Of a stretch of 64,000 nt of DNA, positions 3,495 through 59,127 are shown in pieces (the first letter of the stretch is position 1; every line of letters starts with the position of its first letter). The translations under genes were made by a program, and so were the position numbers. The notes below the pieces were generated by a model, which was given only the letters and a program-made list of their open reading frames with translations, did not search any database and was not told the DNA's origin. The stretch is from Chitinophagales bacterium (lineage in GTDB: Bacteria > Bacteroidota > Bacteroidia > Chitinophagales > JADIYW01), in assembly GCA_020636545.1 (NCBI GenBank), contig JACJXS010000011.1:1916-65915 (forward strand), read 5' to 3'.

Positions 3495-3550
3495 TGATTT
3501 TTTTTACAAAGATACCAATTTGTTTTCATTTTTATAAGAGATGTGCATGT

Positions 3551-3697
3551 AGTATTAAGTAGAAAGTATTGAGTAGTGAGAGATGAGAATCAAGATTTTT
3601 AGAGCCAAGAATCAAGACTTTGTTGTTGTAGTAAGTAGTGAGTAGTGAGTAGTAAGTAGAAAGTAGCAAGAAACTAATTATTTCATTAATCACTAAC
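3551..3697. repeat. modular heptamer-repeat element, locus 1 (GAGTAGT-type heptads, CAAGAAT/CAAGACT module, TTCATTA-type heptads)
   Basis: Read directly: agtattaagtagaaagtattgagtagtgagagatgagaatcaagatttttagagccaagaatcaagactttgttgttgtagtaagtagtgagtagtgagtagtaagtag. The same modules recur at 4411, 5747, 9543 and 50297. Confidence 0.85.
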
Positions 3698-3704
3698 CCT
3701 CGCC

Positions 3705-3727
3705 TTTGTTGGTTTGCAACCAACAAA
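3705..3727. repeat. 10-bp-stem palindrome tttgttggtt-tgc-aaccaacaaa
   Basis: Perfect inverted repeat read directly. It is a near twin of the palindrome at 3815-3837. Confidence 0.8.
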
Positions 3728-3806
3728 CTTCTTATTTTTCATTGTGCAATTACTCATCTTCACTTGTTATTAAATATTAAATATTTTAATTTGATATTTA
3801 TTTTTT

Positions 3807-4088
3807 TTAATTTTGTTGTTGGTTACAAACCAACAACGGCAAAGCAATTAAAATATTTTTAGAACTTGTTGTTACGACAACATCTCCAAAGCTTTTTAAT
3901 ATTTCAATATACTCATTTTGATTAATTTCACAATGACCAAATAAATCAATATCAATAGAATTTCTATGTCCAATTTGTAAAGCCAATGCTGTTCCACCCA
4001 CTAAAAAATAATTTTCAAATAATGGCTCTCGCATTATGCTTTTTAGGAGTTCCATAAGTTTTGGAACAACTGTTTGTGTTTGTAACAT
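3807..4088 (-). pseudogene. truncated nucleotidyltransferase AbiEii/AbiGii-family toxin (N-terminal ~82 codons only)
   Basis: The first 82 aa match ORF 4816..5424 exactly. DNA homology ends at ~3844 and the frame then runs into the palindrome. The GGTALAL...DIDLF NTase motif is retained but the C-terminal ~120 aa are missing. Confidence 0.8.
3815..3837. repeat. 10-bp-stem palindrome gttgttggtt-aca-aaccaacaac at the truncation junction of the AbiEii-like fragment
   Basis: Perfect inverted repeat. It encodes the aberrant C-terminus (LPLLVCNQQQN) of the truncated ORF. Confidence 0.8.
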
Positions 4089-4348
4089 CTAAACTCTGTT
4101 TTGTTGATATTAAAAATAGTAGATAAATAGGAAAGTGTAACAGCATCTAAAATTCTTAAATTTAAAGCAACTTCCTTTATCGTTTCTAAACCATATATCT
4201 CTTTTAACAATTTCCAATCTTTCATTAAACCATGCTCTAATACCTTATGTATCAAATGAACTTTATGTTTTTGAAAATCAAAATTAGACAAATCTACATC
4301 CCAAAAAAGATGTGGTGAAAAATCATTAATAGATATTGTCTTCTTCAT
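4043..4348 (-). CDS. small partner protein of the AbiEii-like toxin (putative antitoxin, copy 1)
   Basis: Differs from 5379..5684 at 3 residues within these coordinates. It lies immediately upstream of and overlaps the toxin ORF. ATG at 4348 preferred over the TTG at 4375. Confidence 0.6.
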   Translation of the reverse strand: MKKTISINDFSPHLFWDVDLSNFDFQKHKVHLIHKVLEHGLMKDWKLLKEIYGLETIKEVALNLRILDAVTLSYLSTIFNINKTEFRCYKHKQLFQNLWNS

Positions 4349-4410
4349 ATTAACAAAGTTACCTTTTCTTTTCAAAATTGTAAAACTAATTTATCAATAA
4401 GAACATAATT

Positions 4411-4813
4411 GAGAATCAAGATTTTTAGAGCCAAGAATCAAGACTTTGTTGTTGTAGTAAGTAGTGAGTAATAAGTAGTAAGAAATTACTTCATTATTGC
4501 ATTATTTAATTATTTCATTACTTCATTAACCTTTGTGAACTCCGTGCAAAAACTTAGTGTACTTTGTGGTTAAAAAAATGAGTATTAAGTAGAAAGTATT
4601 AAGTATTGAGAACCAAGATTTATAGAGCCAAGAATCAAGACTTTGTTGTAGTAGTAAGTAGTGAGTAGTGAGTAGTAAGAAATTCATTACTTCATCATTA
4701 CATTATTTAATTATTTCATTATTTCATTAACCTTTGTGAACTCCGTGCAAAAACTTAGTGTACTTTGTGGTTAAATAAAGATGAGATTTTGAGAAATTAA
4801 TTAATTCATTAAT
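4411..4813. repeat. modular heptamer-repeat element, locus 2 (two tandem ~190-bp composite units)
   Basis: Each unit has four parts in order. First gagaaYcaagattt.tagagccaagaatcaagac, then a C-free GTAGT/GAGTAGT heptad block, then a nearly G-free TTCATTA/CTTCATT heptad block. The unit ends in cctttgtgaactccgtgcaaaaacttagtgtactttgtggttaaa. Confidence 0.9.
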
Positions 4814-4815
4814 TT

Positions 4816-5424
4816 TTACAATTTAATGACCTCATCAATGATTTTTTGTTTACACTCTCCCCAATCTAATTCTTGATACATTTTGACATCTAATTGTTCA
4901 TCAGCATCATCGAAATAAGTTAAACTTTTACAAACCAAAAACTCAGAACCATTAGCATATTTTTGATTATAATAATCTAACATTTCCCTTAATGTAAAGT
5001 AGTTCATTAAAAAATATAAGTCAATAAAATCCTTTTTAGAACCACGCCCCGCAATGGCATTAAGCTTCATCGCAGCAATATCAACTTTTGACAACATTCT
5101 TATCCCTTCTATTTCTATTGGAGTATCTAATAATGGATAATTATAATTAACAAAATCTACTTTTACTTCATTGATTTTTGCAATTAAAATATTTTTAGAA
5201 CTTGTTGTTACTACAACATCTCCAAAGCTTTTTAATATTTCAATATACTCATTTTGATTAATTTCACAATGACCAAATAAATCAATATCAATAGAATTTC
5301 TATGTCCTATTTGTAAAGCCAATGCTGTTCCACCCACTAAAAAATAATTTTCAAATAATGGCTCTCGCATTATGCTTTTTAGGAGTTCCATAAGTTTTGG
5401 AACAACTGTTTGTGTTTGTAACAT
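4816..5424 (-). CDS. nucleotidyltransferase AbiEii/AbiGii-family toxin (DUF1814-like), full length
   Basis: 202 aa with pol-beta NTase motif VGGTALALQIGHRNSIDIDLF and a C-terminal KKDFIDLYFL region typical of this family. The start may be an internal Met (5391 or 5370). Confidence 0.75.
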   Translation of the reverse strand: MLQTQTVVPKLMELLKSIMREPLFENYFLVGGTALALQIGHRNSIDIDLFGHCEINQNEYIEILKSFGDVVVTTSSKNILIAKINEVKVDFVNYNYPLLDTPIEIEGIRMLSKVDIAAMKLNAIAGRGSKKDFIDLYFLMNYFTLREMLDYYNQKYANGSEFLVCKSLTYFDDADEQLDVKMYQELDWGECKQKIIDEVIKL

Positions 5425-5684
5425 CTAAACTCTGTTTTGTTGATATTAAAAATAGTAGATAAATAGGAAAGTGTAACAGCATCTAAAGTTCTTAAATTTA
5501 AAGCAACTTCCTTTATCGTTTCTAAACCATATATCTCTTTTAACAAATTCCAATCTTTCATTAAACCATGCTCTAATACCTTATGTATCAAATGAACTTT
5601 ATGTTTTTGAAAATCAAAATTAGACAAATCTACATCCCAAAAAAGATGTGGTGAAAAATCATTAATAGATATTGTCTTATTCAT
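5379..5684 (-). CDS. small partner protein of the AbiEii-like toxin (putative antitoxin, copy 2)
   Basis: ~101 aa, upstream of and overlapping the toxin ORF in typical toxin-antitoxin gene layout. ATG at 5684 preferred over the TTG at 5711. Confidence 0.6.
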   Translation of the reverse strand: MNKTISINDFSPHLFWDVDLSNFDFQKHKVHLIHKVLEHGLMKDWNLLKEIYGLETIKEVALNLRTLDAVTLSYLSTIFNINKTEFRCYKHKQLFQNLWNS

Positions 5685-5746
5685 ACTAACAAAGTTACCT
5701 TTTCTTTTCAAAATTGTAAAACTAATTTATCAATAAGAACATAATT

Positions 5747-6212
5747 GAGAATCAAGATTTTTAGAGCCAAGAATCAAGACTTTGTTGTTGTAGTAAGTAG
5801 TGAGTAATAAGTAGTAAGAAATTACTTCATTATTGCATTATTTAATTATTTCATTACTTCATTAACCTTTGTGAACTCTGTGTAAAAACTTCGTGTGCTT
5901 TGTGGTTAAAAAAATGAGTATTAAGTAGAAAGTATTAAGTATTGAGAACCAAGATTTTTAAAGCCAAGAACCAAGACTTTGTTGTAGTAGTAAGTAGTGA
6001 GTAGTGAGTAGTAAGAAATTACTTCATTATTTAATTACTTCATTATTTCATTATAAAAATCCTGTCCATCATTTAATCATAAAAATCATAGTTCAGACAG
6101 TTTTTTGAGTAGAAAGTATTGAGTATTAAGTAGTGAGAAATTACTTCATTATTTAATTACTTCATTATTGCATTATTTCACTAACCACTAAAAACTAAAA
6201 ACTCACTAAAAA
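5747..6212. repeat. modular heptamer-repeat element, locus 3
   Basis: Same module order as locus 2, plus an ataaaaatcct...ttcagaca terminal module and an ACTAAAA heptad run (6187-6212) abutting the stop of the next gene. Confidence 0.9.
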
Positions 6213-7620
6213 CTACTGTCTTTTAATTCCTGTGCAATAAACTCTTAAATGTCGATCTAAATAGGAATCATTATATACAGATATACTTTTAATAAAAGTA
6301 CCTGCTGGGCAAACACCAAAATTTGTCAAATCATTTTCATCGGAATCTGGATGATTTAAAACACTTTCAATCCCATATCCAGTTTCAACAGTAGTATAGC
6401 CTGATGATAAAGTAGTACACTTAATTGCCAAACCATCATCCAAACGACTAGTAGCATATGCTTGCCAACCTGTTCCAATTGTTCCATCAGGACAAATCGC
6501 ATGATAGTGTTTATTATCTGTGAAATTATAGCGTGGTGCAACATTAGTAGCAGTTGTTCCTGTCCCCTTTGAAGTAGTAACTTGTGTAGCACCAATATCG
6601 TAAGAAGTAGGTCTGTACCACGTAGTGGTAGCAGATAGTAAATTAGATATATCAACGCCTTGAATTTTCATATCACCATCCATGGAGCCAGTTGCGTAAA
6701 CGGAAACCGTAGTAGCGCCATATCCAGCTTCTAATTCAATACTATGCCATGTATTATCACTTGAAGTACTTGGTCCTCTTTTAAAATCTAATTTTCCTGT
6801 TACTAAACCTTGTGTAGCAATAAAATTATGATTTGAAATTGTATTTCCAGATCCAGTTGTGTTTAATACTAAATCTGCATTAGTGTTTTCATTACTTACA
6901 GAAAAGTCATCACTTGACCCGCTGCCAAAACCTGTCCATGCCTTTCTTCCTGCTGCATAGCCTTTAGGATACCATTGTATGTAAGTATGGTCTGTACCTT
7001 CTAAGTTCAAAAGCCCTGCATTGCTTTTTATTAAAGTATTTCCATTAACTTCTAATTTTTGTGTAGGTGCTGTTGTTCCTATCCCTACTCTATCATTATC
7101 TCCATCAACAGAAAAAGTAGTGCCATCAACATTAAACATATTAACACCAGTTCCTGTAAAACTCATTTTATTGGTATTAGTTAAAGCAGAAACAGTTGTT
7201 GGACGCACTAAAGGTCCGCCTAATTCTATGATAAGGGTCAGAAGCACTTGCATTGGGACCTGTAATTGAAATATTTGCACCATTTTGTGCTTTTACAGAG
7301 TTTACCATTCTCACCCATTTTGTACCATCCCAATAATAATAACCAGGCGATACATTATTTGGTGCAGTACCAGCAGTGGCAGTATTATAAACCAATAATG
7401 AGGTTGCAGGAGAGACTACAGGAGCGGCAGAATTTGTGGCAGTAAGTGCTACATTCGGTATTAACAATCCCTTTTTATCTGCTGCAGGATCACTTGCAGT
7501 ACTGATTTCTAATTTTGCCGAATTATCAGGTGAATTTGTGCCAATTCCTACATTGCCTTGTGCTATTGAATTAGTAAAAAAAATAAATAGCATTACTGTA
7601 AAAGCGTAAATCTTTTTCAT
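6213..7620 (-). pseudogene. secreted VGIGT-motif protein split by a frameshift near 7240 (or a sequencing error)
   Basis: ORF 7177..7620 carries the signal peptide and the NVGIGTNSPDNSAKLEI motif. ORF 6213..7283 continues in another frame with RVGIGTTAPTQKLEV. The two overlap by 107 nt and read-through works with a 1-nt indel around gacccttatc. Confidence 0.55.
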
Positions 7621-7703
7621 ATTATTTTCATTTTAAGTTTATTGTTTTAATTTATGGTATATCTATTAAATAATAAATGCCTTAAAGTAGGTCATCTAAT
7701 TAA

Positions 7704-9463
7704 TTATTTCACAGTTACTTTTTTAGTAAATACATTTTGGTCATTTTTGAAAGTGATTAAGTAATTACCACTTGCTATATTTTTCAAATCTAATTCTAAT
7801 TTATTATTACCACCTTTCAATTCATATTGTTTTGAATTATTCATATTCTGTCCAATGGCATTATATAATTCAGTTTTCAAATAAGCATCTTGGGAAGTAT
7901 AAACATCAAAATAGGAAGTTCCATTAGAAGGATTAGGATATATTTCTGAAATTGTAAAATTAGAATTTGGAATTAACTTCGCTTTTACAATCGGACTATA
8001 TTTAAACTTATTATCAAAATCTATTTGTTTTAATCTATATAAATAGGTAATGCCACCAAAAACATTGCGGTCATCGTAAGTATAAATATTTTCCGTAATA
8101 GCATTTCCAGCACCAGCTACAAAATCTAATTTATCAAAAGTCATTCCATCAAGTGAACGTTGAACCTCAAAACCGGCATTATTAATTTCTGATGCTGTAA
8201 CCCATTTCACTTGAATATATTCATTATTAATTGGTTTTGCATCAATACTCAATAATTCAATAGGTAGAGTTGTATTAGAATTATTAGAAGTTCCATGTAT
8301 TCTAAAACTAGAAAATGAATTTTGGTTACTTAGTGAAATATCTGTAGCTTTAGTTGTAGAAGCTATTCCACAATAACCATATCCTGTAAGATGTGCAAAC
8401 GGAAAAGGACTAAACGGACCAGAAACCCCATCGCCTCCAGGTACACCATTTTTAGCAACTATACGTAAATATTTACTTCCATAGGGTGTATTGCATGCAT
8501 TTGGCACTTGAATATAATTTGCAGTTTCTAATTTGCTTCCAGGATGTAAGTTAATAGTATAATTATAACCAGTACTAGCTCCTGCTGGCGTTACCACCCA
8601 TTCGTGTGATAAATCATAAGAACTTTCCAAAGTGTACATATCTAAAACTCCGTCAGGTCCACCTATACAATCAGGAATAGGATCTGGAGAATTTGGCACT
8701 TTGTCAGTACCTACATCACAAAACACAAAACGATGAATAGGTGCAGTAGTTGCCGGCTTAATATATCCTAATATGCTTGTTGTGCTGGAATAGTTGCTAA
8801 ATTCAAATCAAATGCTTCCATACCATCTAATGAACTAGGCTCAACGCCAATTGGAAAATAAAAATAACCCGTATTGATTTGTCTTCTTAATTTACCTTCT
8901 ATATATTTTACTGTTGCACCATTTCCAGTACTATAGCCAGTAAATTTAGCCGTTGATGGATTTTGTAAAAACAATTCGTAAGCATAAGCACTTCCATCAT
9001 TTCCATGAGAAATTGCATCAGTACGGAGAATACCACCAGTACTAGAAAACGCAAAACTACCTGAACCATTTACATTAACATTTGTATTCAAAGCGACAAC
9101 ACCAGCACTTTTATTAATATCCATATCATAAAATTGATTTTGGTTAGATGCTGTGCCATTCCAAGTACCCTTAATTAGATGATTAGAAGTTCCAACAAAA
9201 CGCTCAATTCCAGTGGAAGTATAATGATTGGAAGATGGAGTATTAGTCCAATCACCAGTAATTTCAATTAAACTTGTAGTATTGGTAAACGCTCCATCAT
9301 TGTTGATAATTTCTCCGTTTACATAGAGCGTTGGAACAGTAGCATTAATTTTATCATTCAATTTTACAATAGCTCCATTGATATAAAACTCATTTGCTGC
9401 AAAACTTGTATGTAAAAACAAACAAGAAAGCAAGAAGATTAAAGGTTTGTAAAGTTTTTTCAT
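7704..9463 (-). pseudogene. T9SS-secreted protein split by a frameshift near 8765-8810 (or a sequencing error)
   Basis: The upstream ORF (8768..9463) has a signal peptide but no sorting domain. The downstream ORF (7704..8726) has a T9SS C-terminal sorting domain (IYPNPSNGTSYFDV...KKVTVK) but no signal peptide. The downstream frame is open upstream to ~8810. Confidence 0.6.
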
Positions 9464-9542
9464 AACAATTAATTAAATTATGAGCTAAATATAATTAATT
9501 ATTTTGATAAGTGTCAAATAAATTTCAAAAAAATTATTATTT

Positions 9543-10047
9543 GAGAGATGAGATTTGAGAATCAAGAGCCAAGACTTTATTGTAGTATTAAGTAGTGAGT
9601 ATTAAGTATTGAGAAATTAATTCATTCATTACTACATTATTTAATTATTTCATTATAAAAATCCTACCAATCCCAAAATCCTATAAATCCTGATTCAGAC
9701 AATTAATTTGAGTAGAAAGTAGTGAGTAGTGAGAAATTCATTACTACATTACTTTATTATTACATTACTTCATTAATTCATTATAAAAATCCTGCCAATC
9801 CCAAAATCCTATAAATCCTGATTCAGACAATTAATTTGAGTAGAAAGTTGTGAGTAGTGAGTAGTGAGAAATTAATTATTTCATTACTACATTAATCTTT
9901 GTGAACTCTGTGTAAAAACTTTGTGTACTTTGTGGTTAAAAAAATGAGTATTAAGTATTAAGTATTGAGAAATTCATGATTACATTACTTTATTATTACA
10001 TTACTTCATTATTTAATTATTTCATTATAAAAATCCTGATTCAGACA
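9543..10047. repeat. modular heptamer-repeat element, locus 4 (includes a 128-bp tandem unit)
   Basis: cattataaaaatcctRccaatcccaaaatcctataaatcctgattcagacaattaatttgagtagaaagt recurs at 9651 and 9779. A deleted variant (aaaaatcctgattcagaca) lies at ~10024. One ctttgtgaactctgtgtaaaaactttgtgtactttgtggttaaa module lies at ~9897. Confidence 0.9.
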
Positions 10048-10308
10048 AAAAAAACACCTACTTATAGGTTATCCACTATATTTACATTGTTATTCACAAT
10101 ATATGTGCATAATAATCAGTAGGGTGTACAAAAACATAATCTTAAAAAATAGCAAAATTGTATGATTTAATGTAATTTTGAATATATTATTAAATACATT
10201 TATTATTCTTTATAACTTAGATTTATGAATATATTCTACACTGTTTTTGATATTCCCAAAACACACATAATGAGCCAACGCAAGCGCCTAGTCAACAAAT
10301 GTTCAGCC

Positions 10309-13300
10309 ATGCTAAAAAATTATGTAATTTATACAAGCTTAGTTTTGTGTTTTTTTATAAGTGGTAATACTTTTGGGCAAAACAAATACAAACTAATTAC
10401 TTCAACATCTGACTTAGTTGCAGGAGATAAGTATATAATTTCTTCAGCACAATCAGATACTTCCGCACAAGTTTTAGGGTATCAAAATACAAATAATAGA
10501 CCACAAGTTACAACTACTGGTGGAGCACCATTTACTGTATCTAGCAGTATAATCACACTCTCTCCAGCAACTGCTAACACTAATACAAATAATCCTTATG
10601 AAATTACGATAGAACAAGGTTCTGATGCAACACACTATTATTTAAAAGACCCTTTACAAACCAACTCATATCTTGTGCCTGCAACAGGAAGCAATAATAA
10701 TAATAATTTAAAAGGTAAAACAGCCCCAGGAGTTAGCGATTGGACTATAACTTTCTCAAGCAATGCTGCGGTTATAACTAATACAGGAGATCCTAATACA
10801 AACGGAAGAAATATCCTAAGATATAATTCAGGTTCTAGTTTATTCAGTTGCTATTCCACTGGACAAGCCGCTGTATATTTATTTCGTAAAGTATTTACAA
10901 TTACCTACGACGGCAATGGTAGTGATGGAGGAACTGTACCAACAGATGCTAGTAGTCCTTATTTTTCTGGCTCTACTGTAACTGTTTTAGGTGCAGGTAC
11001 AATGACAAAAACAGGCAATACTTTTGCCGGATGGGATAGCGACAATGACGGTACTGCAAATTTTACAGGTTCTGGTAGCAAAACATTTAGTATTTCTGCT
11101 AATACTACATTAAAAGCGGTATGGACGCCTAGTGGTTGCACTACACAAACTATAAATCCTATTGCATCATCCGTTACTAAAACGTATGGGGATGTTGCTT
11201 ATAGCGTTGCTACTACTGCTACTTCTAGTTTAACAGTTACCTACTCCAGCAGCAATACAAGTGTGGCTACAGTAGATGCAAGTGGTAACGTAACAATAGT
11301 AGGTGCTGGTACTGCTACCATTACTGCGGCTCAAGCTGGTAATAGTTCATACTGTGCTGCAACATCGCTTACACAGGCATTAACTGTAAATAAAAAAAAC
11401 TTAACAATTACTGGGCTTACTGCCAACGATAAACTATATGACGGAACTACAACGACTACTCTAAATGGTACAGCAACATTAAATGGGGTATTAGCAGGCG
11501 ATGCATCCAATGTTAGCCTTGGCGGAGCTCCTAGTGTCAATTTTAACGATGCAACAATGGCATGCTCTAAGACTGTTACTGTTTCCGGTTACACTATTTC
11601 TGGTTCTGCATCGAGTAATTATTCGCTAACGCAACCATCAGGCTTTACGGCCTGTATAAATGGGATAAGCACTAATAACTCAACTACATTAGGGCCATTT
11701 TGTAATTTTACCAGTAATACTATTGCATTGCCCTACACTGTGGTCGGTTCATTTGCAGGTCAGTATGATATACAAATTTCAAATAGTTCAGGTACTTTCC
11801 CTACAAATGCAACAACACAACTATTAACCTATGTATCCAACTCTGGAGGTATAGTAACAGCTACCTTGCCAGCATCTTATACCACAGGTACAAAATATAG
11901 AGTTAGGGTTGTAAACAGCTCTCCCGCTTTTTATTTATCGGGGAATAATGGCAGCGATTTTACCATTACAGCTGTAGCCACCCCAACGCTAAGTATCACA
12001 TCTTCTCCTGCAGCGGTAGCTGGTACTACTACCATTTGTAGTGGCACGAATGTTACGTTTACAGCCACACCTGCTAGTGTAGGTGGTGGTACAGTATCTT
12101 ATCAATGGAAACTGAATGGCACTAACGTTGGAACAAATAGCAATTCATATAGCAACAATACATTGGCAACTGGCAATACCATAACTTGCGACATTACCAT
12201 AACTGGCGGTTGTGTTACAGCCACCTCTGCCAGCAGCAATACCATTACTATGGCGGTAAATACAACACCCACAAATGACTTGTGTAGCAATGCCGTGGGC
12301 TTAACCGCAAATGCCGCTGCAGTAGGTGGTACAATGACACCATGTGCAGGATTTGAAACGCCTTTCAGTGGTAGTAAAAAAGATGTTTGGTATAAATTTG
12401 TTGCACCTTGTACTGCCGATTATACCATTATCCTTACGGGTTTTACAGGTGATATGGATATGGCATTATTTTACAATAGCAATAGTTGCCCATCATCTAC
12501 TACTACAATAGCAAGCTCAACGACAAGCACTTCCACCGAAACAATAACCCAAGCACTTACGAGTGGCAATACATATTACATTCGTGTTTATGCATTTAAT
12601 ACTACAGCAGAATCGTCAAGTTTCACTATACAGGCTACAGGTATTACTTCCGTTCCAGCACAACCCGACCCAATAGTGGGCGAAACTTCTGTGTGTCCTG
12701 GCTCAAGCCAAACATATACGACCAATCCCGTTGCCGATGCCACCAGCTATACATGGTCAATACCTTCCGGCTGGAATATTACTGCAGGTGCAGGTACTAC
12801 TTCTATTACTGTAACTACTGGCATCAGTGGCGGTACGGTTTCTGTTACCGCCGACAACGGTTGCGGCAGTAGCACCGCCAGAAACTTAGCTGTGAGTATG
12901 TTGGCAATACCTTCTACCCCAACGGCTACGGCAGGTACTGCCATTACGGGTGCTTCTTTTACGGCAAACTGGAACAGCGTTGGTGGCATTACAGACTATA
13001 GTGTAGATGTATATACCTATAGTGCCAATCAAAATATGGCGGTATGGACATTTCCAACAAGTGGTGCAACTACTACCGCAGATATTTATAATGCTAATAA
13101 TAATGGAAAAACAATTACACGACAAGGTGGTGGATCGATAACGGATGTTTCAGGTGCAACCACAAAAGCTGCGAATGGTAATGGTGGCTGGGATGGTGGT
13201 AGTGGCTCTAAATACTGGCAAATAATAATTGACGCTACGGATAGTAAAAATCTTACCTTATCTTCTAAACAATATTCTTCAAATACAGGTCCGAGGGATT

Positions 13301-16300
13301 GGAAAGTACAATATAAAATAGGCAGTAGTGGAACTTGGACAGATATTACAAGTGGAAATATAACAGTTGCTAATAATTTTACAACAGGTGTATTAACCAA
13401 TTTAGCACTACCATCGGCTTGCGATTTCCAACCCGAATTATATATCCGTTGGATAATGACTTCAAATACCCAAGCAGATGGCGGAGGTTCTGTAGCATCT
13501 GGCGGTACAAGTAGAATAGATGACATATATGTAAATGGAGATATGTTTTCTTACGTACCGGGATATGAAAATATTATTACTAGCGGTACTTCCTTAGCCG
13601 TTACTGGTCTCTCTCCTAATACCGATTATTATTATGTAGTAAGAGCAGATAATGGGAATTGTGTATCTCCCAATTCTAATGATATAAAAGTAACTACTTC
13701 TTCGTGTGTATCTGCTACTCATACTGTTACATCTATTATGCCAAACACAGGTCCAGTTGGCACTAGAGTATTAATACGAGGAACAGGCTTTACCAGCATT
13801 ACCGATGTGCAAATTGGTGGCATATCTTTTACAGATTATACCATTGTGGATAATACCACTATTATTGCTAGGATACCAGATGGTGCTACTACCTCAACAA
13901 TTGATGTATTTAATAACGGTTGCCCAAAATCATCTGGCACTTTTACGCTTTTGAGCAGCGTAGGGTTATGTGGAGGAGCTGCATCTGCAACTCCTACCGA
14001 TTTATTGATTTCTGAAGTATATGATTCTGAAACAGGTAGCCGAGGATATATTGAATTGTATAATGGAACGGCATCTACCATTAATTTAGCTAATTATAAA
14101 ATAAAAATATCTACTGGAGCAACTAATTGGGTAAGTTTAAGCGGCTCATTAGCTCCTAATAAATTTGCTATTGTAAAAATTGGTAGCACTGGCACTGATT
14201 GTGGTACTTCTATTACAACTTCAGGAACATTAGTGATAGACCGAAATTCTTCAAGTGGGTATAATGAAAATGACCCAATTGAATTGTATAAAGGAAATAC
14301 TACGAAAATAGATAGAATGGTAACTCCAAATGAAAAAGGATTTAATATGGAGAGAAATACCTTAACTGACGCACCTTCTACTACCTTTACTTCGGCAAAC
14401 TGGACAAAAAATAGCACAGAAACATGCAGCACCTTGGGTTATGCTTCTTTTGCTACAGCACCATTATTGGTTATAAATACCAGTGCCACCGATTGGACGA
14501 CTTGCCCCGGCACAGTACAATTTACCGTATCAGCTACCGCAACACCAGCACCCATATCGTCATATACTTGGTATTACAACGATTTTAATTTGATGAATGG
14601 GTGGCAATTAGTAAGTGGAAATATTACAGGTGCAACAGGCACCAACACGGCAACGCTTACCTTACCTGCAGATTTTGCACCTTTGTATAATTATCAATTT
14701 TATTGTGATATAAATAAAACAAATAGCGGTAATTCTTGTACTAAAGCCACTAATGCTGCCTATTTTACTTATCCTACAGCACCCTATTACAGAACAAAAG
14801 CAAGTACTACAAATGGTAGTTGGACTACAGCCAATGAATGGGAAATGACTACTGATATTAACTTTGTAAGCCCTGCACCTATAACAGCATGTGCTTATCC
14901 ACTCTCAGTTAACTCATCAGCTGCATTTATACAAAACGGTACTAAAACCACTATTGGCGATGGTGTTTCAAGTTATGTAATTGATATTGATAAAATAACG
15001 ATTGACGGTACATTAGAACTTCATAAAAAATCTTCCTTATTTGTTTATGATAGTACTGCTGGAGCCGATATGATAGTTAATGGAACATTGATAGACAGAG
15101 GGAGTTCTAGCAATGGTATTGCTTTTACGGGTGCATCTTATCTTTCTGGTTCAGGCTGGACTATGGGTAGTGCGGCTACTGTAATAAAAACCAATAATGC
15201 CTCTGTAGATGAATACAAAACACACTATCAAGATGGCATTAGCACCATACCAGATGGCAGTGCTGGTGCAAATTGGATATATCAATACAATGGAGATGGT
15301 AATCCAAGCGTAAATGCCATCGGTATGTTTTATCCTAATTTAATATTTGAAAATACAACGGGTGCTGCATATAGTTTTATTACATCAACATCTTTATTAA
15401 AAGGTGGTTCTGATTATTGTACTGTAAAAGGCAACTTCAACATTGGTACCACTGGTACAAATCCTGTTACAGTTTATAACAATAACTTCAATACACAAGC
15501 AATGAAGGTGCTGGGTAACTTATCTATAGGTACTGGTTCTATTTTATCAAATGCTTCTTATGATGGGAACACTTCAGTAAATCACGGACATGGAACTGGC
15601 ATTGAGCTATCAGGGAATTTAACAAATGATGGAACCTTTACAAATAACTCTAATAGTATAGGAATTTTGAGATTTAAAGGGACTGGGACACAAATAGTTT
15701 CGGGTGCAGGTACATTCAACTTATACAATGTTGAACTTGATAAACCATCGCAAACATTGGTAGATCAACAAGTAAATTTAACTGCCCAAAATAATTTGAA
15801 TTTTAATGCAGGTGGTATTTTAAAAACTAATTCTAATGTCTTTTCGGTAAACAATGGAAGTATTACAAATGCAGTTACCGGGCATGATGCTCCTTATACT
15901 GGATTGGCATCACCTACATATTCAAACGACAAATATATATTTGGCAGATTAGAACGTATGGTCAATACCAACGGCATTTACGATTTCCCAGTGGGTGATG
16001 CCGTTGCTGGTGAAGGCTATAACCCAATTCGTTTTGAAAGAATAAGCGGAACCGGAAATGCAACAGCATGGTTTATTCCTGGAGACCCAGGGTCTATAAA
16101 TGTTGGTCCTGTTAGTGTATCTTGTACTAGAGATAATTTTTATCATTTTACAGATATGACTGGCGAGGGAAAATGGCGAATGAGTGGAGCATCTTTTAAT
16201 TATAATATTTATTTGCACCCTAATCAAAACAACAATAATGTGCATCCAAATGAATTAGGCACCAATTATCCATATTTCTATAGAAATAATTATCGTACCC

Positions 16301-16995
16301 TAAAAGCAACAGATGGTACCACAGACTGGACGCCATTTGCTGGTGATGGTAATATTTGTGTCGTTGGCTCATATTATAATTGCCCTGGTACAAATTTTAG
16401 CGGATTTTCCGACTTCGCTATTCCTGGTGGCGACGGATTATCTACGGCATTACCTATTGAATTGGTTTCTTTCACTGCGAAATGTATTGAAAATGAAAAA
16501 GTGCAACTCCATTGGATTACTGCTTCTGAAAGAAATTCGGCAAACTTCATTATAGAAAAATCTTTAGATGCTATTCATTTTTATCCAATTGGAACAGTTC
16601 AGGCTGCAGGAAATTCTATTTCTGAATTACATTATCAATTTATAGATGAATTACCAAATGATAAAGCATATTATAGATTAAAGCAAATAGATTTAGACAA
16701 CAAAGAAAACATTCATCCTGTTATTTATACAAAATGCGGTTTGACTATAAACGGCATTCAAGTTTATTATGCAGGAAATAATCAGATTCATGCAGATATT
16801 CAAACCAATAAAACAGAAGATTATATATTCAATCTATATCAAACAGATGGTAAATTGATTTTTCATCATTCAAAAGTAATATTGGAAGGCAAGAGCAAAG
16901 TTATTCTTTCTCATAATCAATTAGCAAAAGGTATTTATCTTTTGCAAGTAATAAATGGCGAGAATATGCAAACAAAAAAGATAGTTGTAGATTAG
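10309..16995 (+). CDS. giant multidomain T9SS-secreted surface protein (adhesin-like)
   Basis: Signal peptide MLKNYVIYTSLVLCFFISGNTFGQ at the ATG at 10309 (track start 10225). Recognisable modules: Listeria-Bacteroides repeat (TITYDGNGSDGGTVP...FAGW), Big_2-like (SSNTSVATVDASGNVTIVGAGTATITA), YDG-type repeat, PKD-like, pre-peptidase-C-like and FN3-like. Also IPT/TIG (TGPVGTRVLIRGTGF), a lamin-tail-like domain (LLISEVYDSETGSRGYIELYN) and a C-terminal T9SS sorting domain. Confidence 0.85.
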   Translation: MLKNYVIYTSLVLCFFISGNTFGQNKYKLITSTSDLVAGDKYIISSAQSDTSAQVLGYQNTNNRPQVTTTGGAPFTVSSSIITLSPATANTNTNNPYEITIEQGSDATHYYLKDPLQTNSYLVPATGSNNNNNLKGKTAPGVSDWTITFSSNAAVITNTGDPNTNGRNILRYNSGSSLFSCYSTGQAAVYLFRKVFTITYDGNGSDGGTVPTDASSPYFSGSTVTVLGAGTMTKTGNTFAGWDSDNDGTANFTGSGSKTFSISANTTLKAVWTPSGCTTQTINPIASSVTKTYGDVAYSVATTATSSLTVTYSSSNTSVATVDASGNVTIVGAGTATITAAQAGNSSYCAATSLTQALTVNKKNLTITGLTANDKLYDGTTTTTLNGTATLNGVLAGDASNVSLGGAPSVNFNDATMACSKTVTVSGYTISGSASSNYSLTQPSGFTACINGISTNNSTTLGPFCNFTSNTIALPYTVVGSFAGQYDIQISNSSGTFPTNATTQLLTYVSNSGGIVTATLPASYTTGTKYRVRVVNSSPAFYLSGNNGSDFTITAVATPTLSITSSPAAVAGTTTICSGTNVTFTATPASVGGGTVSYQWKLNGTNVGTNSNSYSNNTLATGNTITCDITITGGCVTATSASSNTITMAVNTTPTNDLCSNAVGLTANAAAVGGTMTPCAGFETPFSGSKKDVWYKFVAPCTADYTIILTGFTGDMDMALFYNSNSCPSSTTTIASSTTSTSTETITQALTSGNTYYIRVYAFNTTAESSSFTIQATGITSVPAQPDPIVGETSVCPGSSQTYTTNPVADATSYTWSIPSGWNITAGAGTTSITVTTGISGGTVSVTADNGCGSSTARNLAVSMLAIPSTPTATAGTAITGASFTANWNSVGGITDYSVDVYTYSANQNMAVWTFPTSGATTTADIYNANNNGKTITRQGGGSITDVSGATTKAANGNGGWDGGSGSKYWQIIIDATDSKNLTLSSKQYSSNTGPRDWKVQYKIGSSGTWTDITSGNITVANNFTTGVLTNLALPSACDFQPELYIRWIMTSNTQADGGGSVASGGTSRIDDIYVNGDMFSYVPGYENIITSGTSLAVTGLSPNTDYYYVVRADNGNCVSPNSNDIKVTTSSCVSATHTVTSIMPNTGPVGTRVLIRGTGFTSITDVQIGGISFTDYTIVDNTTIIARIPDGATTSTIDVFNNGCPKSSGTFTLLSSVGLCGGAASATPTDLLISEVYDSETGSRGYIELYNGTASTINLANYKIKISTGATNWVSLSGSLAPNKFAIVKIGSTGTDCGTSITTSGTLVIDRNSSSGYNENDPIELYKGNTTKIDRMVTPNEKGFNMERNTLTDAPSTTFTSANWTKNSTETCSTLGYASFATAPLLVINTSATDWTTCPGTVQFTVSATATPAPISSYTWYYNDFNLMNGWQLVSGNITGATGTNTATLTLPADFAPLYNYQFYCDINKTNSGNSCTKATNAAYFTYPTAPYYRTKASTTNGSWTTANEWEMTTDINFVSPAPITACAYPLSVNSSAAFIQNGTKTTIGDGVSSYVIDIDKITIDGTLELHKKSSLFVYDSTAGADMIVNGTLIDRGSSSNGIAFTGASYLSGSGWTMGSAATVIKTNNASVDEYKTHYQDGISTIPDGSAGANWIYQYNGDGNPSVNAIGMFYPNLIFENTTGAAYSFITSTSLLKGGSDYCTVKGNFNIGTTGTNPVTVYNNNFNTQAMKVLGNLSIGTGSILSNASYDGNTSVNHGHGTGIELSGNLTNDGTFTNNSNSIGILRFKGTGTQIVSGAGTFNLYNVELDKPSQTLVDQQVNLTAQNNLNFNAGGILKTNSNVFSVNNGSITNAVTGHDAPYTGLASPTYSNDKYIFGRLERMVNTNGIYDFPVGDAVAGEGYNPIRFERISGTGNATAWFIPGDPGSINVGPVSVSCTRDNFYHFTDMTGEGKWRMSGASFNYNIYLHPNQNNNNVHPNELGTNYPYFYRNNYRTLKATDGTTDWTPFAGDGNICVVGSYYNCPGTNFSGFSDFAIPGGDGLSTALPIELVSFTAKCIENEKVQLHWITASERNSANFIIEKSLDAIHFYPIGTVQAAGNSISELHYQFIDELPNDKAYYRLKQIDLDNKENIHPVIYTKCGLTINGIQVYYAGNNQIHADIQTNKTEDYIFNLYQTDGKLIFHHSKVILEGKSKVILSHNQLAKGIYLLQVINGENMQTKKIVVD

Positions 16996-23351: not shown

Positions 23352-23425
23352 GGTTCGGTAGTTCAGTTGGTTAGAATACATGCCTGTCACGCATGGGGTC
23401 GCGGGTTCGAGTCCCGTCCGGACCG
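23352..23425 (+). tRNA. tRNA-Asp (anticodon GTC)
   Basis: Folded by hand. Acceptor ggttcgg/ccggacc with one G-U pair, D-arm agttcagttggttagaat, anticodon loop ctGTCac, T-arm ggttcgagtcc, discriminator G. CCA is not encoded. Confidence 0.9.
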
Positions 23426-23767: not shown

Positions 23768-23821
23768 TACATGCCTGTCATCTCGCCTAAGGCGAGACGG
23801 ATTCGAGTCCCGTCCGGACCG
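23768..23821 (+). pseudogene. partial tRNA-Asp copy (anticodon-stem/loop fragment plus T-arm and 3' acceptor strand)
   Basis: tacatgcctgtca matches 23377-23389. ttcgagtcccgtccggaccg matches 23406-23425. The intervening 17 nt are replaced by a 21-nt stretch, most of which forms a hairpin (tctcgcc-taa-ggcgaga). There is no 5' acceptor or D-arm. Confidence 0.85.
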
Positions 23822-23822
23822 C

Positions 23823-23856
23823 AAAAAAAGTCCTCAAATTTTTGAGGACTTTTTTT
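23823..23856. terminator. second, identical copy of the tRNA terminator hairpin
   Basis: A 59-bp block (23802-23860) is identical to 23406-23464 and includes this hairpin. Confidence 0.8.
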
Positions 23857-23915
23857 ATTTAAATTACTCTATGGAATTCCTACTAAATTTGAGCCTAAAA
23901 ATGTCCATTAAGACT

Positions 23916-50296: not shown

Positions 50297-50358
50297 GAGT
50301 AGAGATTTTTTGCAGATGTGAGTAGTGAGAGATGAGATTTCGAGCAATTAAGTATTTT
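50297..50358. repeat. modular heptamer-repeat element fragment, locus 5
   Basis: gagtagagatttttt...gtgagtagtgagagatgagattt matches the modules at 3575 and 9543. Confidence 0.7.
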
Positions 50359-50388
50359 AATAATAAAACAATTAAATATTTTTTTTTT

Positions 50389-50466
50389 CGCATTGGTTCG
50401 TGTCTTCACGAAACATAATAAATTATATATTAAAAAATGTGGCTTGTGAAAACACAAACCACTGCG
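50389..50466. repeat. ~78-bp double-hairpin palindromic element, copy 1
   Basis: cgcattggTTCGTGtcttCACGAAacataataaattatatattaaaaaatgtggcTTGTGaaaaCACAAaccactgcg. The outer 20-nt arms are inverted repeats of each other, and each arm also folds on itself. Confidence 0.85.
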
Positions 50467-50473
50467 TAATTTT

Positions 50474-50491
50474 TAGATTTTAGAAAATCTA
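50474..50491. repeat. 8-bp-stem palindrome tagatttt-ag-aaaatcta
   Basis: Read directly, between copies 1 and 2 of the double-hairpin element. Confidence 0.6.
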
Positions 50492-50550
50492 AATCCAAAC
50501 AAGAAGATATTGATAATTAATAAAACAGATTAAGAATGGATATTATTTCT

Positions 50551-50629
50551 CCGAATTATTTCGTGTCCTATCGAAACATAATAAATTATATATTAAAAAA
50601 TATGGTTTGTGAAGACACAAACCATTGCC
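50551..50629. repeat. ~78-bp double-hairpin palindromic element, copy 2 (left arm degenerate)
   Basis: ccgaattatttcgtgtcctatcgaaacataataaattatatattaaaaaatatggTTTGTGaagaCACAAAccattgcc, 73 bp from the 3' end of the ATPase gene. Confidence 0.8.
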
Positions 50630-50701
50630 TTAATTTTCTATTCAAAAACAAATACAAACCATTATCTTAATAAAAAAATATACTATGGTTATAGAATGGC
50701 T

Positions 50702-51907: not shown

Positions 51908-52016
51908 AATATTGTCGTTTATATTCAACAAAATTAATAAATATTGTCGATATTAATCAACAATTTATCTATTTTCCATCTGTTTGTAACTTAATCTGAT
52001 GCTTTCTCACCTATTC

Positions 52017-52095
52017 CGCATTGGTTCGTGTCTTCACGAAACATAATAAGTTATATATTATAAAAATGTGGTTTGTGAAGACACAAACCACTGCC
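52017..52095. repeat. ~78-bp double-hairpin palindromic element, copy 3
   Basis: cgcattggTTCGTGtcttCACGAAacataataagttatatattataaaaatgtggTTTGTGaagaCACAAAccactgcc, upstream of the ATPase gene start. It is followed by ttagaatcaagact, a heptamer-family module. Confidence 0.85.
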
Positions 52096-52112
52096 TTAGA
52101 ATCAAGACTTTT

Positions 52113-55728: not shown

Positions 55729-58700
55729 ATGCAAAATCCGACACCATATCAGCCTAAAAACAAAATTAGAATAGTAACCGCAGCTTCTCTTTTTGACGGT
55801 CATGATGTTGCTATCAATATTATGCGTAGAATTATGCAGTCTTCGGGTGCTGAAGTGATACATCTTGGACACAATCGAAGTGTAAAAGAGATTGTGGACT
55901 GTGCCATTCAAGAAGATGCAAATGCTATTGCTATTACATCTTATCAAGGTGGTCATGTTCGCTTCTTGAAATATATGTATGATTTGTTGCAAGAGCAAAA
56001 TAGCAATCAAATTAAAATTGTTGGCGGTGGTGGAGGAACTATTTTACCATCAGAAATTGAAGAATTAGAACAATATGGCATAGATAAAATTTATTCGCCA
56101 GATGATGGTCGTGAAATGGGTTTGCAAGGTATGATAAATGAAGTATTAGAAATTGCAGATTTCGCGACAGGAAAAGATATTAGTTTGGATACTGAATTAT
56201 TAAAACAAAAAAATACCAAACAAATTGCACAACTAATTTCTTGTGCTGAAAATTTCCCTAAGGAATTTGAAAAAACAGCAGCTCAAATCTCATCTCTCAC
56301 TGCTCACAATCAAACTCCAATTCTCGGAATTACTGGAACTGGCGGTGCTGGAAAGTCATCTCTAACCGATGAGATAGTACGCAGATTTTTATTAGATTTT
56401 CCAGATAAAACCGTAGCGATTATTTCCATTGACCCATCACGAAGAAAAACTGGAGGAGCCTTATTGGGCGATAGAATCCGAATGAATAGTATCAATAATG
56501 AACGTGTTTTTATGCGTTCGATGGCAACTCGTCAAACCAATGCTTCTATTTCTAAAGATGTTCAAGATGCTATCCAGATTTTAAAAGCTGCTGCTTATGA
56601 TTTAATCATTGTTGAAACTTCTGGAATTGGGCAGAGTGGTACTGAAATTATTGATATTGCTGATGTTTTCTTATATGTGATGACACCTGAATTTGGAGCT
56701 GCTTCACAATTGGAAAAAATTGATATGTTGGATTATGCAGATATTGTTGCTATCAATAAATTTGATAAGCGAGGAGCTCAAGATGCTTTAAGAGATGTCA
56801 AAAAACAGTACCAACGCAATAGAAACCTATGGGATAAAAATCCTGATGAAATGCCTGTTTTTGGTAGTATTGCAGCCCAATTTAATGATCCAGGAACTAA
56901 TGAACTATATCTAAATCTAATTCAAACAATCATTACGAAGACAAAAGTAGATTGGCGTAGTCAATTAAATTTAAAAACTGGAAATTCTGAAAAAATCTAT
57001 ATTATTCCACCAAACAGAACACGCTATTTATCTGAAATTGTAAAGACAAATAAAGATTATGATGTTTGGGTCAATGAACAAGCTGAAATTGCAAACGCAC
57101 TTTATGCTTTGGATAGAGTTCAGTCTATTGTTCAGAGTTCACAGTCCAATAAGAACCAAGAATCAAGAACCAAGAACCAAGAACTATTACCGATTGACCA
57201 ATTAAGGAATGAACAACAACAAAAACTGCATCATGATTGTAAACAAATTTTAGACAATTGGACAGAGAAAGTTCAATCTTATAAAAATAAAGAGTTTGTA
57301 TTTAAAGTTCGTGATAAAGAAATAAAAATTAAAACACATACCACTTCATTATCGCATCAAGAAATACCAAAAGTGGCACTTCCAAAATACACAGCTTGGG
57401 GTGATATTTTGAAATGGAATTTGCAAGAAAATGTACCAGGTAGTTTTCCATATACTGCTGGTGTCTTTCCTTTCAAAAGAGAAAATGAAGATCCTACAAG
57501 AATGTTTGCTGGAGAAGGTGGTCCTGAAAGAACCAATAAACGTTTTCATTATGTGTCTTTAGGTTTGCCTGCAAAAAGGTTATCAACTGCGTTTGATAGT
57601 GTTACTTTATATGGCAACAATCCAGATTTACGACCTGATATTTATGGAAAAATCGGTAATTCAGGCGTTTCAATTTGTACGCTAGATGATGCTAAAAAAC
57701 TGTATTCTGGATTTGATTTATGCAGTCCGACAACATCAGTTTCTATGACGATTAATGGACCAGCACCAACAATTTGTGCATTTTTTATGAATGCTGCAAT
57801 CGACCAACAATGTGAAAAGTATATCAAGGAAAATAATTTAACTACAATAGTAGAACAAAAGATTGATGCAATTTATAAAGCAAAAAATGTCACTCGTCCT
57901 TGTTATTATGGAAAATTACCTGAAGGTAATGACGGTTTAGGTTTGATGCTTTTAGGCGTTACAGGCGACCAAGTTTTAGAAAAAGATATTTATGAAAAAA
58001 TAAAAAAATATACACTTTCTCAAGTTCGAGGAACTGTCCAAGCTGATATTTTAAAAGAAGATCAAGCACAAAACACTTGTATCTTTTCTACAGAGTTTTC
58101 ATTAAAATTGATGGGTGATGTACAAAGCTATTTTGTAGAAAATAAAGTACGTAATTTTTATTCTGTTTCAATTTCTGGTTATCATATTGCCGAAGCTGGA
58201 GCGAACCCAATATCTCAGCTGGCATTTACATTAGCCAATGGCTTTACATTTGTAGAATATTATTTATCCAGAGGAATGCATATCGATGATTTTGCACCAA
58301 ACTTATCGTTCTTTTTCTCCAATGGTATAGACCCAGAGTATGCTGTAATAGGTCGTGTTGCTCGAAAAATATGGGCAAAAGCAATGAAATATTTGTACAA
58401 AGGCGATGAAAGAAGTCAGAAATTAAAATATCATGTACAAACATCTGGAAGAAGCTTACACGCTCAAGAAATAAGTTTTAATGATATTCGTACAACATTG
58501 CAAGCATTGTATGCTATTTATGATAACTGCAATTCCTTACATACCAATGCTTATGATGAAGCAATTACCACACCAACCGAAGAAAGTGTGCGTAGAGCAA
58601 TGGCAATTCAATTAATTATCAATAAAGAATTAGGGTTGGCAAAAAATGAAAATCCTTTACAAGGTTCTTTTATTATTGAAGAATTGACTGATTTGGTAGA

Positions 58701-59127
58701 AGAAGCAGTTTATACAGAATTTGAGAGAATGACGGAGCGTGGAGGTGTTTTGGGAGCAATGGAAACTATGTATCAACGTGGAAAAATTCAGGAAGAAAGT
58801 ATGTATTATGAAAACTTGAAACATACAGGAAATTATCCAATTATTGGTGTAAATACTTTTTTATCCTCAAAAGGTTCACCAACTGTAATTCCAGATGAAG
58901 TGATAAGAAGTACCGATGAAGAAAAAAATAATCAGATTGATAATTTGAATGCACTGCATCAACGAAATGAAAATGATTCGATAAAGCTTCTAAAAACATT
59001 ACAACAAACAGCATTAGAAAATAAAAATGTATTTGAAGTCTTAATGGAAACAGTAAAATATTGCAGTTTAGGACAAATTACTCAAGCACTTTTTGAAGTT
59101 GGTGGTCAGTATAGAAGAAATATGTAG
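55729..59127 (+). CDS. icmF: fused isobutyryl-CoA mutase (B12-binding domain, MeaB-like G-protein, mutase substrate domain)
   Basis: N-terminal B12 domain ([16 protein letters not shown]), a central P-loop GTPase ([18 protein letters not shown]), and a C-terminal acyl-CoA mutase TIM-barrel region. 1132 aa with the IcmF domain order. Confidence 0.85.
57151..57185 (+). repeat. five tandem AAGAAYY heptamers inside the icmF linker
   Basis: aagaacc aagaatc aagaacc aagaacc aagaact, translated in frame as [12 protein letters not shown]. The same CAAGAAY motif occurs in the intergenic modular elements. Confidence 0.85.

Follow-up and report, generated by a model that had tools for sequence, protein, structure and literature searches.

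The window analysed here is a stretch of 64,000 nucleotides (64 kb) from Chitinophagales bacterium (assembly GCA_020636545.1, contig JACJXS010000011.1), with a GC content of 31% and the gene content of an ordinary Bacteroidota chromosome, including cargo proteins of the type IX secretion system (T9SS), LptD, SRP54, aconitase, LpxA and ComEC. Flanked by iscS on one side and by a giant adhesin gene on the other lies a variable block of 6.5 kb, which consists of four arrays of short modular repeats, two AbiE toxin-antitoxin cassettes and one four-gene T9SS-related cassette. We regard the repeats, with modest confidence, as a new lineage-restricted family of composite non-coding interspersed repeats that supplies portable homology for the gain and loss of cassettes at this hotspot. 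To our knowledge it is the first family of composite interspersed repeats described for Chitinophagales, the kind itself being already known. Interspersed repeats are poorly described in Bacteroidota outside Porphyromonas, and the locus is a tangible example of a hotspot of toxin-antitoxin and T9SS-cargo genes that varies between strains and is bracketed by repeat arrays. Judged by sequence similarity, the window belongs to a Chitinophagales lineage without close sequenced relatives; the closest relatives of its IscS share 97, 84, 73 and 70% identity, and named organisms appear only up to ~64%.

Anatomy of the repeat arrays

The arrays are built from a small set of modules in a fixed order, which a module annotator renders as (G' A)? 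G pivot C (T1|T2|T2b|N) and which is seen in the four arrays and in the sequences from elsewhere designated L060, L136 and L087-L096. An earlier note on this DNA had described a modular, strand-asymmetric element running from A through a G-block, a pivot and a C-block to T1 or T2, and the four arrays bear out this order. The fifth locus that it had listed (50297-50358) is a G-like stretch plus the lead-in of A and nothing else of the unit. To the modules named there we add G' (a G-block ahead of A), T2b and N, and we find that A is optional. Both blocks had been described as heptads, which is correct for the G-block (GTAGTRA, period 7), whereas the C-block consists of TTCATTAY octads (period 8/16). 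N is made of ACTAAAA heptads; Tandem Repeats Finder (TRF) reported tandem periods for the G, C and N blocks. By inspection, the 3' half of A consists of CAAGAAY heptads, T1 of four CTNNGTG motifs, and T2 of four GGATT motifs on the reverse strand at a spacing of ~9-10 nt.

The repeat family is far beyond chance. The core junction between G-block and GAAATT (TRAGTAKTRAGAAATT) occurs in nine copies in the window against 0.01 expected, and the T1 module in four copies against 0 expected, all of them on the + strand. Not every copy is a separate case: the units at 4411-4605 and 5747-5941 lie in one segmental duplication of 1336 bp and hence count as one observation. Since independent short-read assemblies of other samples hold the same modules, the arrays are not an assembly artefact.

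The lengths of the blocks vary in steps of their own periods. Between distinct units the G arms differ by 7 nt (21/28, 23/30/37 and 31/38) and the C arms by 8 nt (37/45/53 and 33/65), and variants of the G arm, variants of the C arm and end modules combine differently from unit to unit. Arm lengths range from 22 to 65 nt; GTAG recurs in every heptad of the G arm, and the tandem oligomers keep invariant cores (GTA... in the 7-mer and ...ATTA in the 8-mer). In units that have A plus T2 or T2b, the start of A and the reverse complement of the T2 end are identical at 14 of 16 positions (z 4.4), and the two ends pair when complete units are folded.

Table 1. Coordinates of repeat arrays, cassettes and related features in the window
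Feature	Position	Strand	Composition or remark
Array 1	3547-3700	+	G' 3549-3577, A 3585-3618, G 3619-3669, degenerate pivot GAAACT 3670-3675, short C-like block 3676-3697
Array 2, first part	4411-4607	+	A 4411-4444, G 4445-4481, pivot 4482-4487, C 4488-4530, T1 4531-4574, G' 4575-4607
Array 2, second part	4608-4813	+	A 4608-4641, G 4642-4678, pivot 4679-4684, C 4685-4731, T1 4732-4775, degenerate unit 4776-4813
Array 3, first part	from 5747	+	A 5747-5780, G, pivot 5818, C, T1 5867-5910, G' 5911-5943
Array 3, second part	to 6214	+	A 5944-5977, G, pivot 6015, C, T2b 6055-6099, G, pivot 6137, C, N 6179-6214
Array 4, first part	from 9539	+	degenerate A 9539-9575, G, pivot 9613, C, T2 9657-9701, G, pivot 9733, C, T2 9785-9829
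Array 4, second part	to 10047	+	G, pivot 9868, C, T1 9896-9940, G', pivot 9969, C, truncated T2 10029-10047
Complete A-G-pivot-C-T2b unit	5944-6099	+	A start pairs with T2b end, like terminal inverted repeats
Best-preserved hairpin unit	9701-9785	+	AAAGTAGTGAGTAGTGA / loop GAAAT / TCATTACTACATTACTTT; 17 pairs, 2 of them G.U, 1 bulge
Fragment	50297-50358	+	G-like heptad stretch and GAGAGATGAGATTT, the 14-nt lead-in of module A
Cassette 1	3807-4375	-	truncated AbiEii toxin gene 3807-4088, DUF6922 antitoxin-like gene 4043-4375
Cassette 2	4816-5711	-	full AbiEii gene 4816-5424, DUF6922 gene 5379-5711
Cassette 3	6213-9463	-	four genes, including T9SS-tail protein 7704-8726; absent from L087, L090 and L131
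Segmental duplication (1336 bp)	copy 1 3844-~4605, copy 2 5180-~5941		copies 99% identical
Whole variable block	3539-10047		four arrays and cassettes; replaced by 392-nt spacer in strain L191/L192

Cassette variation between strains

In the window, the toxin-antitoxin cassette has been tandemly duplicated together with its array. Between strains the differences are larger: strain L191/L192, whose iscS is 94% identical at the nucleotide level, has a spacer of 392 nt from iscS to the giant adhesin gene in place of the 6.5 kb of the window. In L087, L090 and L131 the region corresponding to 6.1-9.7 kb of the window is missing, and the toxin-antitoxin cassette is joined to the upstream region of the giant gene at three different module junctions. 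Different whole-gene cassettes thus lie between the same two conserved genes across strains, the last three sequences representing intermediate states; this is the pattern by which minimal mobile elements are recognised, and we use that name as a functional analogy. The junctions fall inside homologous modules and therefore indicate homologous or unequal recombination, and not site-specific recombination, so that recombination is the probable mechanism of cassette change. Because the same modules bracket several accessory cassettes, the arrays may act as portable homology.

Array variation extends to public assemblies at large. An index of public assemblies lists the window's AbiEii protein in 39 blocks, in 35 of which its longest contig is shorter than 2 kb; the AbiEii contigs that we looked at end inside or beside arrays and hold the same modules in other numbers and orders. 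Because contigs stop inside or beside arrays, these regions and the accessory genes within them will be missing from short-read metagenome-assembled genomes (MAGs).

The L191/L192 spacer carries a mini-array with a different (D11-like) hairpin core between A and T2. A second repeat family of ~100 nt, with a pair of hairpins (such as GTGGTTTGTG..CACAAACCAC), occurs in the window at 50380-50479, 50543-50642 and 52008-52107, flanking genes for an AAA_14/DUF4143 ATPase and a helix-turn-helix protein, and hairpin cores related to it sit between A and T2 in L191 (760-985); for this reason the A/T2 shell can be said to enclose different cores.

The giant surface-protein gene (10225-16995), which adjoins array 4, itself appears to be strain-variable: its counterpart in L087 (3-5537, sample ERZ27268127) has no match to it beyond the first few bases in a megablast screen that listed only alignments of at least 150 nt at E<=1e-20. 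At the other end of the block, where the AbiEii copy is truncated, an AT-rich spacer of 92 nt stands between two hairpins with 10-bp stems (TTGTTGGTT..AACCAACAA) at 3705-3727 and 3820-3842. A half-site of these hairpins (GTTGTTGGTT) lies at the edge of the L060 array.

Relatives in other genomes and contigs

A scan of contigs from 185,579 species genomes, the source genome not among them, yielded 47 matches, of which 45 are due to chance and two are real relatives (L060 and L083). The first is a Chitinophagales MAG of 37% GC, a species other than that of the window, in which a T9SS gene and its intrinsic terminator are followed downstream by an array of the order N-T2b-G-C-T1-G-C-N-T2b; this array shares 77-83% identity with the window arrays over 119-199 nt, at a locus that is not syntenic with the window. 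The second is a single-hairpin relative directly after a stop codon, with the same heptads, the same GAGAAATTAC loop, and arms complementary at 25 of 28 positions. Among 76 matches in metagenome contigs, only L131, which belongs to the same population as the window, and L136 (ERZ724519 contig, 1-1001) are real. In L136 the end of an unrelated gene is followed by G' A N-like T2 G pivot C, with runs of identical octads in the C-block, and then by a toxin-antitoxin pair (a UPF0175-like antitoxin and a PIN/DUF3368-like toxin), which is a second type of cassette adjoining the repeats.

The family is therefore present in at least three non-homologous contexts across genomes and contigs. Confinement to one region would have marked the modules as a local duplication artefact, a possibility raised in the earlier note; since the same ordered modules occur at the non-syntenic loci of L060 and L136, the family, as far as these searches reach, is narrow yet no such artefact. 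Its narrowness is seen in relatives, where no modules were found at 70% IscS identity (L188, 21 kb, with an AbiEii/DUF6922 pair of its own) or at 84% (L186-L189). In viral contigs (IMG/VR) the core pattern gave 39 matches, all of them chance matches without C-free and G-free flanks, and the T1 and T2-junction patterns gave none. Rfam held no relevant match at the gathering threshold or at E<=10, in keeping with the earlier impression that the sequence belongs to no recognised family. Plasmid and phage BLAST searches returned only unrelated low-complexity octamer runs. On a Pantoea agglomerans plasmid (NZ_CP134756; L190, 95500-95620), (ATTTCATT)x14 lies directly upstream of parA; it presumably serves as a partition or operator site and is like the C-block only by chance.

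Folding of the units

The two arms of a unit hold complementary motifs: GTAGTAA reads TTACTAC as its reverse complement, and one added T together with C-to-T changes turns TTACTAC into the octad. The + strand RNA of the units folds with many G.U pairs, at energies between -17 and -21 kcal/mol and with a z between -2.7 and -4 relative to dinucleotide shuffles, whereas the - strand RNA has no fold beyond shuffles (z ~0). As a conserved structure, however, the hairpin does not hold up: within-arm shuffles give a z of only -1 to -3 (+0.1 in one unit), reversed arms fold equally well, and RNAalifold over 14 units returns a consensus of -1.2 kcal/mol with a covariation term of -0.06 and no register-conserved structure. 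The good dinucleotide z is thus mostly compositional or at the level of motifs. A hairpin or cruciform of single-strand DNA was likewise rejected as unstable (-6 kcal/mol, z +0.8).

The arms had earlier been taken as not complementary to each other. Strict Watson-Crick complementarity is indeed weak in the window units (z 0.5-2), but the complementary motifs, the G.U folding of the + strand and the L083 hairpin speak against a lack of any relation; in L060, unit 1 reaches a z of 3.5. We take the unit to be a decayed quasi-palindrome, which would imply a palindromic origin. Such a quasi-palindrome would also account for the stop-rich block followed by a C-rich block that each direction shows.

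Position relative to promoters and terminators

For every array, the distance from its end to the -7 box of an adjacent transcription unit (iscS, both toxin-antitoxin operons and the giant gene) is 33-126 nt: array 1 lies 33 nt upstream of the IscS -7 box, and array 4 ends 126 nt upstream of that of the giant gene. The Bacteroidota -7 motif TAnnTTTG does not occur inside the arrays, and a scan for sigma-70 promoters gave a count equal to that of shuffles. The earlier statement that the element is not a hairpin terminator agrees with a terminator scan, which predicts no canonical G+C-rich intrinsic terminator inside the arrays and whose count equals that of shuffles; the stems are rich in A.U and G.U and are without a T-run. 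Among 40-nt windows of the whole 64 kb, the reverse-complemented G-blocks stand at the 97th-99.9th percentile of C>G skew in eight of nine cases and at the 88th in the ninth, and the C-blocks on + strand transcripts are unremarkable. The composition of the - strand tract (C-rich, G-poor, unstructured) fits a Rho utilization (rut) site, with Rho dependence a prediction.

Interpretation and alternatives

Our model starts from the basic unit of ~160 nt, in which inverted outer ends (the start of A and the end of T2) enclose a long A+U-rich hairpin core composed of a 5' arm of GTAGTRA heptads, a GAAATT loop and a 3' arm of TTCATTAY octads. Units joined head to tail, with T1, T2, T2b and N as alternative end modules, make up arrays of 150-500 bp. 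These arrays would change by two routes: in one, strand slippage adds or removes single oligomers of 7 or 8 nt; in the other, modules recombine with one another, homologously or unequally. Modules that bracket AbiE toxin-antitoxin pairs and T9SS cargo genes would thereby duplicate, delete and probably import cassettes. The family illustrates how large mosaic arrays can be built by slippage of short oligomers together with shuffling of modules.

Several observations weigh against this interpretation. Within the 64-kb window the family is limited to 3.5-10 kb and one fragment. Low-coverage short-read contigs are the source of some variant junctions, so that chimerism is possible there in principle, although the stretches shared at these junctions are shorter and less identical than the k-mers of assemblers. 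Modules are ~80-90% identical between genomes of 31% and 37% GC, which suggests mobility or selection, passive recombination alone being insufficient. Transition mismatches between the arms are exclusively of the G.U type on the + strand (37, against 0 of the A.C type), a hint of some constraint specific to one strand, which pure neutrality would not predict.

It is possible, though we think it unlikely, that the arrays work in cis, as RNA or transcription elements, to insulate adjacent transcription units: on the - strand a stop-rich block followed by an unstructured G-free tract of ~30% C would act like a rut site, and on the + strand a G.U-rich hairpin would protect 3' ends or pause polymerase. 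The strong C>G skew of the reverse-complemented G-blocks, the strand difference in folding and the one-sided arm mismatches are all in favour, as is the placement of every array between the end of one gene and the next -7 box, where intrinsic terminators are not predicted; in L083, L060 and L136 a gene of the same direction immediately precedes the unit. Against it, RNAalifold finds neither a conserved register nor covariation, shuffled or reversed arms fold nearly as well, and arm lengths vary independently. The units keep no constant orientation to their flanking genes, being antisense in arrays 1-3 but sense in L060, L083 and L136; the symmetry of stops followed by a C-rich tract is automatic for any palindrome, and L060 already has an intrinsic terminator ahead of the array. 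If the arrays did also terminate transcription, they would give a handle on Rho-dependent termination in Bacteroidota.

Somewhat less probable still is that the units are MITEs (miniature inverted-repeat transposable elements) moved in trans by a transposase encoded elsewhere, with arrays arising from nested or adjacent insertions. The units are AT-rich, foldable and ~160 nt long with inverted ends, they occur at unrelated loci of at least two genomes with ~80% identity, and the A/T2 shell surrounds a different core in L191. A run resembling the 3' half of module A, (AAGAAYC)x4.9 at 57151-57184, also lies in frame inside an IcmF-like gene (55729-59127), as an 11-aa insertion relative to the solved IcmF structure 4xc6. 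On the other hand, inspection of the window arrays, L060 and L136 revealed no target-site duplications, and no transposase, integrase or RAYT (Y1 transposase) is present among the open reading frames of at least 110 aa in the 64-kb window. Many units lack one or both ends or have T1 in place of T2, and the strain junctions fall inside modules and not at element ends. For matching to a parent insertion sequence, the relevant ends would be GAGAATCAAGATTT/AAATCCTGATTCAGAC.

A more ambitious version of the homology interpretation is that the arrays form a selected cassette docking system, combining bidirectional insulation (ribosome release at the stop-rich block, then Rho loading on the G-free, C-rich tract) with homology for the swapping of toxin-antitoxin (defence) and surface-protein cassettes by natural transformation. 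We give this little credence. Such a system would, by a similarly speculative analogy, resemble an integron without an integrase. Interest in the family would grow if its arrays were indeed functional bidirectional insulators or a dedicated docking system.

Iteron-like binding is a more doubtful possibility, in which the tandem 7- and 8-mers would be binding arrays for a small DNA-binding protein (ribbon-helix-helix or nucleoid-associated) upstream of promoters. Arrays of this sort are targets of the omega repressor (heptads) and of MetJ (8 bp), and the Pantoea octamers upstream of parA are a precedent for tandem octamers. The contiguous 7-8-nt repeats with invariant cores and the proximity of arrays to the -7 boxes of four transcription units fit this scheme. 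Repeat number and order are, however, highly variable between strains, the same arrays adjoin unrelated genes, and no candidate binding protein is linked to the arrays.

The earlier note had viewed each unit as a dedicated bidirectional three-frame translation stop, which we consider very improbable. All three frames are stopped in 8/8 G-blocks and in 7/8 reverse-complemented C-blocks, and six-frame stops occur in 9/10 90-nt windows within units compared with 24% of other intergenic DNA. Yet shuffles of the same composition, a control named in that note, give all-frame stops in 36-55% (G-blocks) and 50-80% (reverse-complemented C-blocks) of cases for seven units; in the eighth the C-block is short (20 nt) and the figure is 15%. 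A repeat period of 7 or 8 nt that contains TAG, TGA or TAA passes through every frame; moreover, the units are homologous copies rather than independent trials, and the genes adjoining arrays have stop codons of their own. Nor are the C-free and G-free blocks special, runs of at least 35 nt being common in a window of this GC content (59 C-free and 53 G-free). The frame-stop and G/C-exclusion properties are largely as composition and the 7/8-nt period give, not far beyond chance, and the all-frame stops are probably a by-product of composition and of a period that is not a multiple of 3.

An integron-like cassette array, with the units as attC-type single-strand recombination sites, is equally improbable: co-oriented repeats do separate small toxin-antitoxin-rich cassettes, and the imperfect palindromes have regularly unpaired bases (7 versus 8 nt), but the single-stranded DNA fold is unstable, the 64 kb hold no integrase, the RYYYAAC/GTTRRRY core pair was not found by inspection, and the strain junctions lie at different modules.

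Comparison with known repeat systems

Tandem heptanucleotides in bacterial intergenic regions have a reported precedent in the cyanobacterial short tandemly repeated repetitive (STRR) sequences, which Mazel and colleagues are said to have described in 1990 as runs at many loci without known function. Those are simple one-motif runs of another clade and of other sequence, whereas the heptads of the Chitinophagales family lie inside a multi-module quasi-palindromic unit.

The family does not, as previously supposed, constitute an undescribed class of element; it fits the known composite small interspersed repeats such as BOX, BIME, NIME and BrickBuilt (PMC3049150, PMC3898611, PMC4596501). By analogy, its architecture is closest to BrickBuilt (PMC4596501) and BOX (PMC3049150), and its behaviour is that of NIME arrays and minimal mobile elements (PMC3898611).

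BrickBuilt, a MITE of Porphyromonas gingivalis with an internal minisatellite (PMC4596501), belongs to the same phylum, and the likeness is one of architecture; no sequence similarity was noticed, although no search aimed at it was made. Both are intergenic, with a leader and a tail having small inverted ends around spacer-less tandem short repeats whose number varies by copy and strain; in both, partial versions lack leader or tail and many copies adjoin T9SS-cargo genes. BrickBuilt, however, has a single 23-nt brick and carries promoter activity (PMC4596501), whereas the Chitinophagales family has two oligomers (7 and 8 nt) as decayed hairpin arms with several end modules, and its arrays are without an internal -7 motif.

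BOX of Streptococcus pneumoniae is a boxA-boxB(n)-boxC composite in which the outer modules pair and the inner number varies, and it too is species-restricted with predicted RNA stem-loops; it has been held to be more probably a parasite than a functional element (PMC3049150). It differs in having modules of 45-59 nt of unique sequence, 125 copies dispersed singly, and terminal inverted repeats with target-site duplications (PMC3049150). The NIME arrays of Neisseria are intergenic mosaics of several repeat types, 200-2700 bp long, that flank surface-protein genes, and the gene between arrays is present or absent by strain as cassettes are exchanged by homologous recombination (PMC3898611). They belong to another phylum and are unrelated in sequence, and they are built of 20-bp dRS3 repeats that are targets of a phage integrase (PMC3898611); neither such a bounded repeat nor an integrase is seen in the window.

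REP/BIME and REPIN elements are extragenic imperfect palindromes in mosaics, with GTAG as a recurring tetranucleotide, and G.T pairing in REP stems has been noted as a hint of an RNA role (PMC3733652, PMC3116915). REPs are smaller (20-40 bp), have a single terminal GTAG (or CGTC) tag, and are associated with a RAYT (PMC3733652, PMC3116915). The present units differ on each of these points, with arms of 22-65 nt, GTAG in every heptad and no RAYT in the window.

Other repeats in the window

A further similarity to the array modules occurs in the IcmF-like gene, where the - strand at 56282-56307, antisense to coding sequence of poor conservation, agrees with the G/A fragment at 50318-50340 (GTGAGYAGTGAGAGATGAGATTT) at 22 of 23 positions. 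Two further repeats lie elsewhere in the window. Downstream of a tRNA gene (23352-23425), at a distance of 396 nt, lies a 63-nt copy of the tRNA 3' end and terminator (23798-23860), 98% identical, which looks like an att-site duplication left by an integrative element. At 63248-64000 a 129-bp tandem repeat of at least 4.8 copies (96% identity), Lys-rich if translated, runs past the end of the window.

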